Positions 33,707 through 39,460 of a DNA stretch of 64,000 nt are shown here, piece after piece (within the stretch, counting starts at the first letter, position 1; each line of letters begins with the position of its first letter). A program made the translations under genes and the position numbers. Below the pieces are notes generated by a model. It worked only from the letters and a program-made list of their open reading frames with translations, was not told the DNA's origin and made no database searches. Origin of the DNA: a virus. The stretch spans positions 1-64,000 of IMG/VR virus record IMGVR_UViG_3300037743_000151, one strand, 5' to 3'.

Positions 33707-33976
33707 ATGCTCCTCACCCAGGACGGGCTACGCGCCCTCGAAGGCTTCACCCTCTGCGCCGCACCGCTATACGACGAGGACTTCAACCGCGTCGAAGGCA
33801 ACGACGGCATCATGCTCACCTGCCACCACGGGCACGAGCACTTCTGGCAGAAGCACTGGCCCGGACATGTTGCCGCACCGCGCCTCCGCGACCTGGTCCT
33901 CGTAGCGCAGTCGCACTGGGAGCAGGAGCACCGCGAGACGCAGGCTGAGAACGCGGAAGCCGAGGTGGCCAAGTGA
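33707..33976 (+). CDS. hypothetical protein
   Basis: 89 aa; His-rich (CHHGHEHFWQKHW). Stop overlaps the next start (GTGA). Confidence 0.5.
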   Translation: MLLTQDGLRALEGFTLCAAPLYDEDFNRVEGNDGIMLTCHHGHEHFWQKHWPGHVAAPRLRDLVLVAQSHWEQEHRETQAENAEAEVAK

Positions 33977-34998
33977 AGCGCCTGCTCCTCACCGGGGCGT
34001 CTGGGTTCGTCGGCGCCACCGTCCTCGCCCACGTCCTCACCCACACGGACTGGCATGTGACGTGTCCGGTGTCGTACCGGCACCACGGCGACGGCGCCCG
34101 CATCAACGCCGTCCTCGACGCCCAGCCCGACGCCCGCGCCCGGGTCGACGTCATCGCCCACGACCTGGCACTCCCGATCACGCCGATCCTCGCCGACCGG
34201 ATCGGCCCGGTCGACTACGTGTGGAACATTGCCTCCGAATCCCACGTCGACCGCAGCCTGTCGGACCCGGTGTCGTTCGTGCGGAACAACGTCGAACTCC
34301 AGCTGAACATGCTGGAGTACGCCCGCCTCGCGAAGCCCCGCATGTTCCTGCACATGTCGACGGATGAAGTGTTCGGGCCGGCCGAGCCGGGCTACCGGCA
34401 TCACGAGTGGGACAGCATCCGCCCGTCGAATCCGTACGCGGCCAGCAAGGCGGCGCAGGAAGCGATCGCGTACTCGTACTGGCGCGGGATGTCTGTGCCT
34501 TTGATCATCACCAACACGATGAACCTTCTTGCACCTGCGCCACAGGCCGCGGAGAAGTTCATTCCGAAGATCGCCCGCGCCATCTTCGGCGGCGAGAAGC
34601 TCACCGTCCACGCCTCCCCGGACGGCGCCTCCGGGTCACGCTGCTGGGTTGATGCCCGCGACTTCGCCGCCGCCTGGCTGTGGCTCACCGAGCATTTCGA
34701 CGGCGACGAACGCCTCACCTACTACCCGACGATGCCCACCGGCCCGCTCAGGTACAACATCGTCGGCGAGGAGGCCACCAACCTCGACGTGGCGCTGCGG
34801 ATGGCGGAATCGGCCGGCCGCACGCTGGACTACGAGCTGGTCGACTACCACTCGCAGCGGCCGGGCCACGATCACCGGTATGCGCTCGACGGGTCGAAGC
34901 TCGCCGAACTGGGGTGGCCCGGCCCGCGGCCGCTGGATGACACGCTGTCGGACATCGTGAAGTGGTACGCCGACAACCCGCAGTGGCTCACCACGTGA
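33973..34998 (+). CDS. rmlB: dTDP-glucose 4,6-dehydratase-like extended SDR
   Basis: Motifs TGASGFVG (Rossmann), STDEVFG, YAASKAA (YxxxK), and RPGHDHRYALDGSKLAELGW, which is characteristic of RmlB/RfbB. Confidence 0.7.
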   Translation: MKRLLLTGASGFVGATVLAHVLTHTDWHVTCPVSYRHHGDGARINAVLDAQPDARARVDVIAHDLALPITPILADRIGPVDYVWNIASESHVDRSLSDPVSFVRNNVELQLNMLEYARLAKPRMFLHMSTDEVFGPAEPGYRHHEWDSIRPSNPYAASKAAQEAIAYSYWRGMSVPLIITNTMNLLAPAPQAAEKFIPKIARAIFGGEKLTVHASPDGASGSRCWVDARDFAAAWLWLTEHFDGDERLTYYPTMPTGPLRYNIVGEEATNLDVALRMAESAGRTLDYELVDYHSQRPGHDHRYALDGSKLAELGWPGPRPLDDTLSDIVKWYADNPQWLTT

Positions 34999-35222
34999 GC
35001 ACGCCAGTCCCCGGAGAGGGGCCCCACCGGCGGGCGGCTAAAGGCTGTCTGAACGACACCGCGAAGTGCCTCGACGAGATCCCAATCGGCCGCGTGAACA
35101 CCGACGTGATGACGGCGCACGCGGCGAAATCCCAAGTCTTCGCCACAGCCGCTGTCGCCCACGCCCTGCTGGAACTCGGCGATGTCCTGCGCGCCACGCT
35201 GCGCGGAGCAGCCGATGAGTGA
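34995..35222 (+). CDS. hypothetical protein
   Basis: GTG 34995 (GTGA overlap); 75 aa. Confidence 0.4.
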   Translation: MSTPVPGEGPHRRAAKGCLNDTAKCLDEIPIGRVNTDVMTAHAAKSQVFATAAVAHALLELGDVLRATLRGAADE

Positions 35223-35892
35223 CATCTTCCGCGCCGCGGTGATTCCGACGCGGGACCGTCACGACCTGCTCGCCGACTGCATCAACTCTGTGGTGGATCA
35301 GGTTGACCGGGTCATCGTTATCGACAACCTCTCTGATCCGCCGATCGATCCGGAGCCGTGGCACGGCAAGGTCGGCGTGGTCGCGATCCCGATCGACCCG
35401 CCGAACATCAGCACCCTGTGGAACGTCGGCCTTGCGCTCGCCGACGCATCCGCCCACGCCGAGCAGGCCGACCGGTGGGACATCGCCGTCCTCAACTCCG
35501 ACGTCACCGTCCCACCCGGATGGATCGACGGCCTGTCCACCGCGATGCGCTCCACCACCGCGGTCCTCGCCTACCCCGACCAGCACGGCGGCCGACACCA
35601 GATCCTCCACACGAAGGCCGAGCCGGTGGACCTGCGGACTCGGATCACGGGCTACGCGTACCTGCTGCGCGGCGAGGCAGGGCTACGCCTCGACGAGACC
35701 CTCGCGTGGTGGTACGGCGACGACGACCTCGACTGGCGTGCCCGCGAGCAAGGCGGCGCGCTCCTCGTACCGGGCCTGGCCGTCGAACACCGCTGCCCGA
35801 ACGGCTCGATGTACGAACGGCCGGAGCTGAAGACCCAGGCAGGCCGGGACCGCGAGACCTTCAAAGCGAAGTGGGGCCGCACCCCATGGTGA
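35215..35892 (+). CDS. family 2 (GT-A) glycosyltransferase
   Basis: ATG 35215. AAVIPTRDRHDLL ... VIDN ... acidic DDD/DxD-like motifs (WWYGDDDLDW). Confidence 0.6.
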   Translation: MSDIFRAAVIPTRDRHDLLADCINSVVDQVDRVIVIDNLSDPPIDPEPWHGKVGVVAIPIDPPNISTLWNVGLALADASAHAEQADRWDIAVLNSDVTVPPGWIDGLSTAMRSTTAVLAYPDQHGGRHQILHTKAEPVDLRTRITGYAYLLRGEAGLRLDETLAWWYGDDDLDWRAREQGGALLVPGLAVEHRCPNGSMYERPELKTQAGRDRETFKAKWGRTPW

Positions 35893-35905
35893 ACAGGAGC
35901 ACAAG

Positions 35906-37992: not shown

Positions 37993-38002
37993 TGAGGCAC
38001 GA

Positions 38003-38248
38003 ATGAGCGAGCAAGTACCGAGCGTTGGCCGAATTGTCCACTACACGAGCTACGGCACACCGGGCGGCGAGTACGGCCAAGAGTGCCGGGCTGCCATCGT
38101 GACTGAGGTCGGGCCCGACAACGGCACCAGCTTCCCGAACCTTGGGCTGTGCGTCCTCAACCCGACCGGCATGTTCTTCAACCGGGATGTGCCTGCCGGG
38201 GGTAACGCCGACGGTGGTACGTGGCACTGGCCGGAGCGTGTCGGATGA
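38003..38248 (+). CDS. hypothetical protein
   Basis: ATG 38003 after GAGG; 81 aa. Confidence 0.5.
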   Translation: MSEQVPSVGRIVHYTSYGTPGGEYGQECRAAIVTEVGPDNGTSFPNLGLCVLNPTGMFFNRDVPAGGNADGGTWHWPERVG

Positions 38249-38682
38249 GACTGGAGATCGGCGGCGGGAAGCTCCTGTCAGCAGGCTGGACCAACCTCGA
38301 CCCCAACCACGGCACCGGCGACTGGCGGCGCCTCGCACAAGACACGCCCTGGCCCACCGGCGACCACACGGTAGAGGCCATGCGCGCGAGCCACGTCATG
38401 GAGCACATCCCCGCCGGGACTGAGCGGATCGCGGTTCTCAACGAAGCCCACCGCGTCCTGCGCCCCGGGGCCGTGTTCGAGATCCGCGTACCCAACGCCC
38501 TGTCCGGAACCTGGCACGCCTACGCCGACCCGACGCACGTCTCCTTCTGGTGCGTGGAGTCGTTCCACTACCTCGACGGTTCGAAGGCAGCCCACGCCGA
38601 CTACGGACTCCTGCCGTGGAAGACGATCGAACTCCGCATTCAAGGCGACAACGAGGTCTTGTGGAAGGGGGTGCCGCGATGA
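38245..38682 (+). CDS. SAM-dependent methyltransferase-like protein
   Basis: ATG 38245 (ATGA overlap). LEIGGG ... SHVMEHI ... EAHRVLRPGAVFEIRVP resembles the Methyltransf_11 family. Confidence 0.5.
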   Translation: MRLEIGGGKLLSAGWTNLDPNHGTGDWRRLAQDTPWPTGDHTVEAMRASHVMEHIPAGTERIAVLNEAHRVLRPGAVFEIRVPNALSGTWHAYADPTHVSFWCVESFHYLDGSKAAHADYGLLPWKTIELRIQGDNEVLWKGVPR

Positions 38683-38894
38683 GCGCCCGCGACGCTCTCA
38701 TGGGCGCGCTGTGGGACAACTACACCATGGCCGAGAAGAACGCGTTCATCGACGCCTTCGCGCACGAGCTGGCGGAGAAGCAGCGGGCTGCGGCCAAATC
38801 CGAGTTCGACCGGGATGTCTACATCGACGAACTCAGCATGCAGTTCACGGGCAAGGTGATCGACCTCATCGACCCCGAGGCGCAGAAGCCGTGA
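38679..38894 (+). CDS. hypothetical protein
   Basis: ATG 38679 (ATGA overlap); 71 aa. Shares the AHELAEKQRA...DLIDP motif with the reverse-strand gene 26673..27200. Confidence 0.5.
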   Translation: MSARDALMGALWDNYTMAEKNAFIDAFAHELAEKQRAAAKSEFDRDVYIDELSMQFTGKVIDLIDPEAQKP

Positions 38895-39460
38895 CCGAAC
38901 CTGACGTCACGGTCGTCGTCCCCTACCACGCGGCCCGCGTGAAGAACGGCATGCTCAAACGCGCGGCCGACTCCGTCAACGCGCAGACCGCACCCCACCA
39001 CCTGATCGCCGTCGAAGACACCCAACGCCAGGGCGCCGGTGCCACCCGGCAACGCGGCCTCGACCAAGTCGCCACCGAGTGGACCGCGTTCCTCGACAGC
39101 GACGACGAGATGGACCCCACCCACCTGGCGCAGCTCCTCGCCTGCGCCGAGACCACGAGTGCCGACTACGTGTACCCGTGGTTCCGCGTGAAGGGCGGCC
39201 GCGACCCGTTCCCCATGTTCTTCGGCAAACCCTGGGACAACGCCCACCCCCACTCCACCACCATCACCATCCTCGTCCGCACCGAACTCGCACAGCAGGT
39301 CGGCTTCCGGAATGTGGCAGGCGAGGACTTCACGTTCACGAAGGACTGCATCATCGCCGGGGCAAAGATCGTCCACCTACCGGTTCGTAGCTGGACGTGG
39401 GTCCACCATGGGCGGAACTCCTCCGGCCGACCCGACCGTGGCGACGCCCGCAACCGCTGA
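38891..39460 (+). CDS. family 2 glycosyltransferase
   Basis: GTG 38891 (GTGA overlap). VTVVVPYH ... FLDSDDEM (DxD). Confidence 0.6.
   Translation: MTEPDVTVVVPYHAARVKNGMLKRAADSVNAQTAPHHLIAVEDTQRQGAGATRQRGLDQVATEWTAFLDSDDEMDPTHLAQLLACAETTSADYVYPWFRVKGGRDPFPMFFGKPWDNAHPHSTTITILVRTELAQQVGFRNVAGEDFTFTKDCIIAGAKIVHLPVRSWTWVHHGRNSSGRPDRGDARNR

Follow-up and report, generated by a model that had tools for sequence, protein, structure and literature searches.

The DNA analysed here (the window: 64,000 nucleotides, positions 1 to 64,000 of the IMG/VR virus record IMGVR_UViG_3300037743_000151) carries seven enzyme genes for sugar modification directly upstream of a large terminase gene (TerL). The seven genes, all on the + strand, span positions 33973-39460 and constitute a glycan-building cassette that is real and under selection. 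The set goes beyond chance because it is conserved in dozens of related loci, its catalytic motifs are invariant, and the pairwise ratios of nonsynonymous to synonymous substitution rates (dN/dS) of the seven enzymes are 0.16-0.59. We propose, with a probability of roughly 45%, that the cassette glycosylates virion proteins, late and in the cytoplasm, with a short O-methylated 6-deoxyhexose chain made from the dTDP-glucose (deoxythymidine diphosphate glucose) of the host. Held a shade more tentatively is the wider proposal, in which temperate Streptomyces phages of a widespread family synthesise a methylated 6-deoxyhexose oligosaccharide of their own, starting from host dTDP-glucose, and link it to virion proteins.

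A first-pass annotation, made from the letters alone, had listed two short-chain dehydrogenase/reductases (SDRs), two GT-A family 2 glycosyltransferases, a DUF616-type glycosyltransferase and two S-adenosylmethionine (SAM) methyltransferases. Profile matches in Pfam, NCBIfam, PHROG and the PDB account for all seven, which are present and intact on the + strand at the positions given below.

SDR1 (33973..34998, +) is an RmlB-like nucleoside diphosphate (NDP)-glucose 4,6-dehydratase of the extended SDR type (PF01370, 1.9e-35; PF16363). Its ten best matches in the PDB are all dTDP-glucose 4,6-dehydratases (RmlB), the best at 1.2e-34. The motifs TGASGFVG (GxxGxxG), STDEV, YAASK (YxxxK) and RPGHDHRY (RPGHDxRY) are conserved across 32 sequences. 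Against TIGR01181, the model for dTDP-glucose 4,6-dehydratase, SDR1 scores 176.7 bits (5.9e-52), which is below the equivalog cut-off of 365.1. It is therefore a divergent member, whose specificity for dTDP rather than UDP or another nucleotide we infer. Because SDR1 has every RmlB hallmark, a 6-deoxyhexose derived from host dTDP-glucose and then O-methylated is a reasonable product. The methylated 6-deoxyhexose glycan that had been predicted is thus reasonable for this phage but not supported family-wide, since many relatives lack SDR1 or carry another allele of it. Two SDR1 alleles, ~90% and ~52-57% identical to the window copy, occur among the homologues in loci L002-L025. Neither TerL nor portal similarity predicts which allele a locus carries, and this indicates recombinational exchange within the cassette.

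SDR2 (35906..36712, +) is a compact extended SDR of 268 residues (PF01370, 2.8e-32). Its nearest PDB structures are Pal, GalE, MoeE5 and GDP-6-deoxy-4-hexulose reductases of the Rmd type, and its GGxGxxG and YTATK motifs are invariant in 33 sequences. SDR2 could be of the 4-ketoreductase or 4-epimerase type. One variant cassette (L020/L132; IMGVR_UViG_2933953506_000001) lacks SDR2 and has a homologue of the methyltransferase MT1 in its position.

All three glycosyltransferases have conserved DxD-type motifs, and their classification by hidden Markov models agrees with the first-pass assignments: GT2a and GT2b score above the PF00535 cut-off, and g08 falls below that of PF04765 while its fold agrees. 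GT2a (35215..35892, +) is a GT-A family 2 enzyme of 225 residues. It reaches 25.8 bits against PF00535 (cut-off 23.3) over 32 residues only. Its 623 homologues bear the JGI name "GT2 family glycosyltransferase", and its NSD and WWYGDDD (GDDD) motifs are invariant. The AlphaFold2 model of GT2a is poor to moderate, with a mean predicted local distance difference test score (pLDDT) of 63, because the alignment is shallow, all homologues found being at least 81% identical; it gives weak GT-A matches to KfiA and SunS. GT2b (38891..39460, start approximate, +) is a GT-A family 2 enzyme of about 190 residues with stronger profile matches (PF00535, 3e-10, 40.7 bits versus the cut-off of 23.3; PHROG 14775, 1.5e-45) and invariant FLDSDDE (DSDD) and GED motifs. 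In a profile search of the PDB its best match is TarP, at 5.2e-9, accompanied by PglI, GalT1 and TarS.

The third transferase, g08 (37214..37870, +), belongs to the DUF616/TOD1_MUCI70 type of GT-A enzymes. Its own match to PF04765 (TOD1_MUCI70, still called DUF616 in NCBI naming) has an E-value of 0.027 and 14.2 bits, below the gathering cut-off of 21.4. Many of its homologues at 61-87% identity carry PF04765, and some are named DUF616 by NCBI. The AlphaFold2 model is confident (pLDDT 87.6; predicted template-modelling score 0.88). It matches GT-A enzymes in the PDB, namely the fucosyltransferase WrtF, GT6 and UGGT, and, with template-modelling scores of 0.75-0.82, a Tetraselmis virus DUF616 protein, an Indivirus TOD1/MUCI70 protein and a Cellulophaga phage transferase in BFVD. 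The predicted fold confirms the assignment of g08 as a DUF616/TOD1-type GT-A transferase.

The two methyltransferases retain the SAM-binding motif I. MT1 (36709..37221, start approximate, +) is a class I SAM methyltransferase whose matches to Methyltransf_23 and Methyltransf_11 lie below cut-off; its motif I reads DIACGVGYG. MT1 is accessory and was found outside the window only in two contigs (L020/L132 and L025/L152). MT2 (38245..38682, start approximate, +), a class I enzyme of 145 residues, is a core member of the cassette. It also scores below cut-off against Methyltransf_11 and Methyltransf_23, matches the methyltransferase family PHROG 6636, and keeps EIGGG and HVMEHIP invariant in 33 sequences.

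The packing of these genes is operon-like. As predicted, they are co-oriented and overlapping, with successive junctions of -4, -8, +13, -4 and -8 nt, then -4, -4 and -4 nt; neighbours within the cassette overlap by 4 or 8 nt or stand 13-24 nt apart. A domain scan of the cassette proteins found no nucleotidyltransferase, in line with the first-pass annotation, and a faint NTP_transf_3 match of GT2b reflects a shared fold. No cassette protein contains a hydrophobic segment of the membrane-helix type. No sigma-70-like promoter was detected in the scanned region, the sigma-70 consensus being a weak one for high-GC actinomycetes. Terminator-like matches are weak (9 versus 6.1 expected by chance), two of them lying on the + strand within the cassette.

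The cassette and its position are conserved. We searched the cassette proteins by tblastn against loci fetched around homologues of TerL, SDR1, the capsid protein and the portal protein. The order g01, [SDR1], GT2a, SDR2, [MT1], g08, MT2, GT2b, TerL, in which brackets mark members that may be lacking and g01 is the gene at the upstream edge of the slot, is kept in dozens of uncultivated viral contigs. Counting a slot as cassette-bearing when at least four of the five core genes are present, the core GT2-SDR-DUF616-MT-GT2 occupies it in 28 of the 33 portal-anchored loci in which the slot is visible, and none of the core is found there in the other five. Public data hold between 348 and 623 clusters of homologues, depending on the gene. 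For each enzyme the catalytic motifs stay invariant in 31-39 distinct sequences (three for MT1). The dN/dS values of the enzymes fall in the same range as those of the terminase and structural genes in the same genome pairs (TerL 0.12-0.26, portal 0.24-0.51, capsid 0.34-0.51). With invariant motifs and dN/dS as for those genes, the enzymes are therefore not degenerate. The first-pass annotation had named degenerate enzymes as an outcome that would speak against its prediction; the reading frames are instead intact and under purifying selection.

The host is Streptomyces. A portal-profile scan of reference genomes located cassette-bearing prophages in Streptomyces caniscabiei NE06-02D (within a 446-kb contig) and in Streptomyces sp. 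549 (within a 290-kb scaffold). Complete Streptomyces chromosomes of 8-11 Mb contain homologues of g08, GT2a and g01, and a further cassette copy with identical gene order is found on a 62-kb contig. The phages are thus a family of temperate Streptomyces siphophages. Related sequences also occur in sediment and soil metagenomes.

We found no isolate RNA-seq containing the sequence, only root metatranscriptome contigs that are 90-95% alike (L202, positions 1-20000; runs X13-X15). In these, read depth over the cassette is 4-18, compared with up to 143 over the capsid and tube genes and ~0-3 over TerL and portal in the same samples, depths that cannot tell lysogens from lytic cells. The unevenness of the profile argues against DNA carry-over. 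The cassette is therefore transcribed in the environment, and the samples concerned also show expression of structural genes.

From the enzymes we infer a pathway, including its substrate nucleotide, stereochemistry, order of transfer, expression timing and, above all, its acceptor. The starting compound would be host dTDP-glucose, because the phage has no nucleotidyltransferase of its own. SDR1 would convert it to dTDP-4-keto-6-deoxyglucose, and SDR2 would reduce the 4-keto product to a 6-deoxyhexose of the quinovose or fucose type, presumably D-configured because no 3,5-epimerase is present. GT2a, g08 and GT2b, as soluble GT-A enzymes, would then build a short oligosaccharide on a cytoplasmic acceptor, and one or two of the SAM methyltransferases would cap its sugars by O-methylation. 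Neighbouring genes overlap at their start and stop codons, and the cassette is probably transcribed together with the terminase and head genes. Its enzymes would in that case be available as virion proteins accumulate, and structural proteins would receive the glycan before or during assembly.

Our best guess is virion glycosylation because the cassette is embedded in the packaging and head operon, because its enzymes are soluble, and because methyltransferase and glycosyltransferase genes are similarly placed in Corndog and in a Cellulophaga phage. PMC12363180 and PMC11256854, which cite Freeman 2023, report glycosylation of the capsid and tail tube of Che8, Corndog and Myrna, and describe Che8 gp110 and Corndog gp38 as transferases essential for capsid glycosylation. 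In Corndog, an O-methyltransferase and three transferases lie between portal and protease, within the head operon (PMC4351075). The Corndog precedent invoked by the first-pass annotation holds for the arrangement, our cassette being co-oriented, overlapping its neighbours and directly upstream of TerL. Corndog (gp35-38) and the window thus both have genes for soluble transferases and a methyltransferase inside a packaging or structural operon; Che8 (gp108-110) likewise encodes soluble transferases. In the Cellulophaga phage phi18:2, a small SAM methyltransferase and a DUF616-like transferase lie between the portal/MuF and protease/capsid genes. That methyltransferase (gp38; L216 4534-5001) is annotated as a "DNA methylase" on the basis of PF13578, which we take to be a general class I SAM methyltransferase family; the name looks like a mis-annotation.

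Giant viruses offer a more distant parallel. Chloroviruses and Mimiviridae glycosylate their capsids and fibrils autonomously (see the review PMC9614988). They have their own genes for NDP-sugar 4,6-dehydratases, for reductases and methyltransferases, and for GT-A transferases, whose joint action places rare and partly methylated 6-deoxy sugars on virion proteins. The best structural matches of g08 are DUF616/TOD1-type proteins of the giant viruses Indivirus, Fadolivirus and Tetraselmis virus. The likeness is at the level of the fold only (18-25% identity), and the giant viruses differ in being eukaryotic viruses with far larger gene sets and no synteny.

Several observations weigh against virion glycosylation. 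The first is that GT2a, GT2b and g08 are not homologous to Che8 gp110 or Corndog gp38 by BLASTP and hhalign; the hhalign probabilities of 0.1-0.3% run counter to any kinship with the mycobacteriophage transferases. A tblastn search with GT2a and GT2b retrieved no mycobacteriophage, and GT2b resembles the N-terminus of Che8 gp108 only as one GT2 domain resembles another (1.3e-5). The cassette therefore lies outside that enzyme family, although it may work alike. It further differs from the Che8 and Corndog systems in its 4,6-dehydratase, second SDR, DUF616 transferase and up to two methyltransferases, and in its Streptomyces host and its slot between g01 and TerL. Two further points are that the nearest solved relatives of GT2b include the wall-teichoic-acid enzymes TarP and TarS, and that lysogenic conversion is possible in a temperate phage such as this one. 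Moreover, a lone SDR1 homologue sits beside TerL in four relatives (L009, L010, L183 and L184), a 4,6-dehydratase on its own and with no obvious role, which a virion glycan does not explain.

The remaining points concern the acceptor. The major capsid protein (49217..50977, +; 586 residues; PHROG 777, 3.1e-124) and the major tail, or tube, protein (51913..52590, +; 225 residues; PHROG 792) are the candidates. The latter has homologues among the annotated major tail proteins of 873 phage records. The first-pass annotation had proposed the C-terminal tails of both as acceptors. It quoted their sequences correctly, but the tails are conserved at the level of the family and do not co-vary with the cassette. 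We compared 25 cassette-bearing relatives, four cassette-less ones and 20 that could be assigned to neither group. The tube protein ends in NVTTTxPPTxxCDPTTL in every relative, including the four loci whose slot has no cassette, and its C-terminus aligns with that of the major tail protein in Microbacterium phage Paschalis and in Gordonia phage Twonlo. Among cassette-bearing phages, the capsid C-terminus has between 1 and 6 Ser/Thr residues. In this sample neither the Ser/Thr content nor the motifs of the capsid and tube tails were associated with the cassette, and N-x-S/T sequons in them showed no pattern with it. The comparison has low power, because cassette-less relatives might hold transferases elsewhere and because the Corndog capsid and tube termini are not Ser/Thr-rich. 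Nor was a structural protein unique to cassette-bearing phages found, and the proteins compared yielded no acceptor.

Two proteins were considered as confined to cassette-bearing phages and rejected, p177 and the C-terminal part of p392, both of which vary even among cassette-bearing phages. p392 is a fibre- or tailspike-like protein of 392 residues (53141-54319), and its gene separates those of the tube and the adaptor. KimJongPhill gp15 is 46% identical to it. Counterparts occur in 19 records of Streptomyces phages, which represent about a dozen different phages, and KimJongPhill is the only one of these seen with sugar genes. Among relatives, the N-terminal 80-90 residues of p392 are kept and the remainder is swapped. 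The product of 56128-56577, just upstream of the tape measure gene, is a protein of 149 residues and probably a tail assembly chaperone; its C-terminal tail is very rich in Ser (TEPSSESSSGPSSPASGTNS...).

The foremost alternative, which we regard as rather unlikely, is that the cassette modifies a host envelope glycopolymer (teichoic-acid-like, a lipoglycan or another wall glycan) at the cytoplasmic face before export and so changes the receptor. The benefit, improbable to the same degree, would be superinfection exclusion in lysogens, or progeny that are not trapped on debris. TarP, the best solved relative of GT2b, is a prophage-encoded wall-teichoic-acid N-acetylglucosamine transferase. Enzymes of the TarP, PglI and TarS type are soluble or peripheral, so the lack of membrane helices in the cassette is compatible with such a role. 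The matches of GT2b to TarP and TarS are, however, confined to about 60 residues, the generic nucleotide-binding and DxD part. TarP and GT2b do share the GT2 catalytic core and are both carried by temperate phages. At 190 residues, GT2b is too short, compared with the 345 of TarP, to accommodate the C-terminal oligomerisation domain of that enzyme. TarP is also known as a single moron gene and is not known as a member of a seven-enzyme operon fused to a terminase gene. The lifestyle fits an envelope target, the family being present as prophages in large Streptomyces contigs and chromosomes. So does the behaviour of the g01-TerL interval as a cargo slot whose contents differ in distant relatives, as does the greater abundance of cassette transcripts than of TerL and portal transcripts in the root metatranscriptomes. 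The cassette is nevertheless packed by overlapping codons into the terminase operon, where a gene that has to be expressed in a lysogen would be misplaced. No promoter of its own was detected in a scan that is weak for high-GC DNA, the terminator-like matches are weak and near chance, and the cassette contains no flippase, polyprenyl-phosphate transferase or membrane protein.

Quite unlikely, in our view, is another soluble acceptor: a non-virion protein of phage or host, or a small molecule, for instance an anti-phage metabolite of Streptomyces that glycosylation or methylation would inactivate. The solubility of all the cassette enzymes and the lack of an identified acceptor are consistent with this, and the dehydratase-only relatives suggest that a function at the level of the nucleotide sugar is possible. 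The weakest matches of GT2a are to peptide- or protein-directed GT2 enzymes (GmaR, E = 0.006; SunS, E = 5e-4 on a poor model), but these are too weak to bear weight, and positive support for such an acceptor is otherwise nil. Glycosylation of small molecules in actinomycetes is typically carried out by GT1 enzymes of the GT-B fold, not by GT2 or DUF616 enzymes, which counts against a metabolite.

DNA is disfavoured as the target, and we hold it very unlikely that phage DNA is glycosylated on a hydroxylated or hydroxymethylated base before packaging to evade restriction: no C5-cytosine methyltransferase, TET/JBP dioxygenase (5mYOX) or ThyS-like hydroxymethylase was found by Pfam scan in the cassette and the 20 largest non-structural open reading frames (ORFs) of the 64-kb window, about 8 kb of the source contig lying outside it. 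The scanned frames include Rad52, an RNase T-type exonuclease, DUF6745, helix-turn-helix proteins and a GIY-YIG domain. Phage GT-A and GT-B enzymes, often with a sugar epimerase and sometimes near the terminase, do attach diverse glycans to 5-hydroxymethylcytosine (bioRxiv 10.1101/2023.12.21.572611), and the cassette adjoins the packaging enzyme. The hypermodification clusters of that work resemble the window in their sequential GT-A transferases and SDR "epimerase", and some lie near terminase genes. They need, however, a C5-methyltransferase with a dioxygenase, or a ThyS-like hydroxymethylase, and the window differs from them in that base-hydroxymethylating enzymes were not found. Methylated 6-deoxyhexoses are also not among the DNA glycans described in this study and in one other paper on DNA glycosylation.

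Among deposited phages, searches for near-identical and for distant DNA gave no close relative of the window; only Zukovirus shares GT2a and GT2b, at ~70% nucleotide identity. In KimJongPhill, the homologues of SDR1 (gp4), GT2a (gp109) and GT2b (gp107) have identities of 55%, 61% and ~60%, respectively. The sugar genes of Zukovirus (Zuko and KimJongPhill), like the cassette, adjoin the terminase genes, at the genome ends. An SDR1 homologue, a methyltransferase and a GT-B transferase lie directly upstream of the terminase genes, and the GT2a and GT2b homologues lie at the other end. Unlike in the window, the genes thus form two blocks, with a GT-B transferase (gp6), unrelated methyltransferases and no homologue of SDR2 or of the DUF616 enzyme. 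They also precede the annotated small terminase, whereas the window cassette lies between g01 and TerL. KimJongPhill gp4 (L209 1199-2251) and Atuin gp153 (L200 5930-6994; 48% identical to SDR1) are both deposited as "UDP-glucose dehydrogenase". Both are RmlB-like SDRs, and the deposited names look like mis-annotations.

The small ORFs that the first-pass annotation had seen among the enzymes are also present. g02 (33707..33976, +; 89 residues) overlaps the start of SDR1 by 4 nt. It has no family match in Pfam, PHROG or NCBIfam, varies among relatives and has homologues only in L017 and L022. g04 (34962..35222, +; start uncertain) fills the 216-nt gap between SDR1 and GT2a, with homologues of 45-68% identity in L006, L018, L019, L023 and L207. 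g09 (37895..38248, +) probably starts at 38003. At ~70% nucleotide identity it matches genes annotated as "hypothetical" that lie close to the left genome end in many Mycobacterium phages, as well as genes of Gordonia and Arthrobacter phages, and is therefore not specific to sugar cassettes. g11 (38679..38894, +; 71 residues) overlaps its neighbours by 4 nt at both ends. g13 (39541..39762, +), just before TerL, is variable, with homologues in L019 and L025.

The cassette had been described as wedged between a putative small terminase and the large terminase. The downstream edge is secure: TerL (39778..41331, +; true start probably near 39919) matches Terminase_6N (3.6e-21) and Terminase_6C and is 44% identical to TerL of the Streptomyces phages mu1/6 and OnionKnight. 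The upstream edge, g01 (33106..33663, alternative start 33058, +), remains a putative small terminase. It encodes a conserved protein of 185 residues with an invariant Cys/His N-terminal motif and a helical C-terminus, and precedes the slot in all relatives, cassette-bearing and cassette-less. g01 has no match in Pfam or NCBIfam and none in a profile search of the PDB; its PHROG family (3678) has no assigned function and all 316 homologues are named "hypothetical". Comparisons by tblastn, BLASTP and hhalign showed no similarity to the small terminases of OnionKnight, mu1/6 (gp31) and KimJongPhill (gp7); only its position upstream of TerL suggests that role.

The contents of the slot vary further. 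In distant cassette-less relatives it holds a papain-like cysteine peptidase domain and unassigned proteins (L009 6282-8200; L012 7160-9715). Some relatives (L016, L018 and L023) have an extra gene of ~1 kb between GT2b and TerL; in L208 (12045-12743) the extra gene at this place encodes an HNH_3 endonuclease. Downstream of TerL come a DUF1360-type membrane protein (named from its L208 homologue), the portal protein, a head protein of 1123 residues and the capsid protein. They are followed by a protein of 293 residues with no assigned function, the major tail protein, the variable fibre-like protein, the adaptor and the tape measure protein.

The window has a G+C content of ~67-70% throughout and no tRNA. 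Other features lie outside the cassette. Within the gene at 8163-9638, a 12-nt unit is repeated 48.9 times with 89% match (8395-8981). It encodes about 49 copies of (G/W/R)(D/A)QV, which lie in the N-terminal half of a protein of 491 residues with a DUF6745 C-terminus. Rad52 and an RNase T-type exonuclease are encoded as a pair at 2972-5400, and a GIY-YIG domain is fused to a hydrophobic C-terminus at 25002-25838. By eye, the product of 19242-19607 is HIT-family-like (HLHLHLV motif) and that of 28378-28968 (- strand) is endonuclease VII-like.

Phage-encoded glycosylation cassettes are already known; what is new here is the combination of unrelated transferases, an own nucleotide-sugar tailoring, a DUF616 enzyme and a fixed slot ahead of the terminase. 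To our knowledge, the only phages with demonstrated glycosylation of the virion are so far a few mycobacteriophages, where it has been interpreted in terms of antibody recognition. If our proposal is correct, virion glycosylation would for the first time extend beyond mycobacteriophages, performed by transferases unrelated to those of Che8 and Corndog, and with a virus-encoded tailoring of nucleotide sugars whose other known examples are in giant viruses. Evasion of antibodies could not be what selects for the glycan in a soil host. The glycan would serve other ends, for example particle stability, the avoidance of non-productive binding or an interaction with the host surface. Should the target be a wall polymer or DNA, the cassette would represent a new type of exclusion or anti-restriction module. 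The cassette is larger than those of the mycobacteriophages and enzymatically independent. It is common in soil and sediment and present in prophages of culturable Streptomyces, with partial homologues in the cultured phages Zuko and KimJongPhill. As a non-pathogenic laboratory system, it makes directly testable what phages gain from tailored sugars where there is no immune system, and how often such cassettes have arisen independently.

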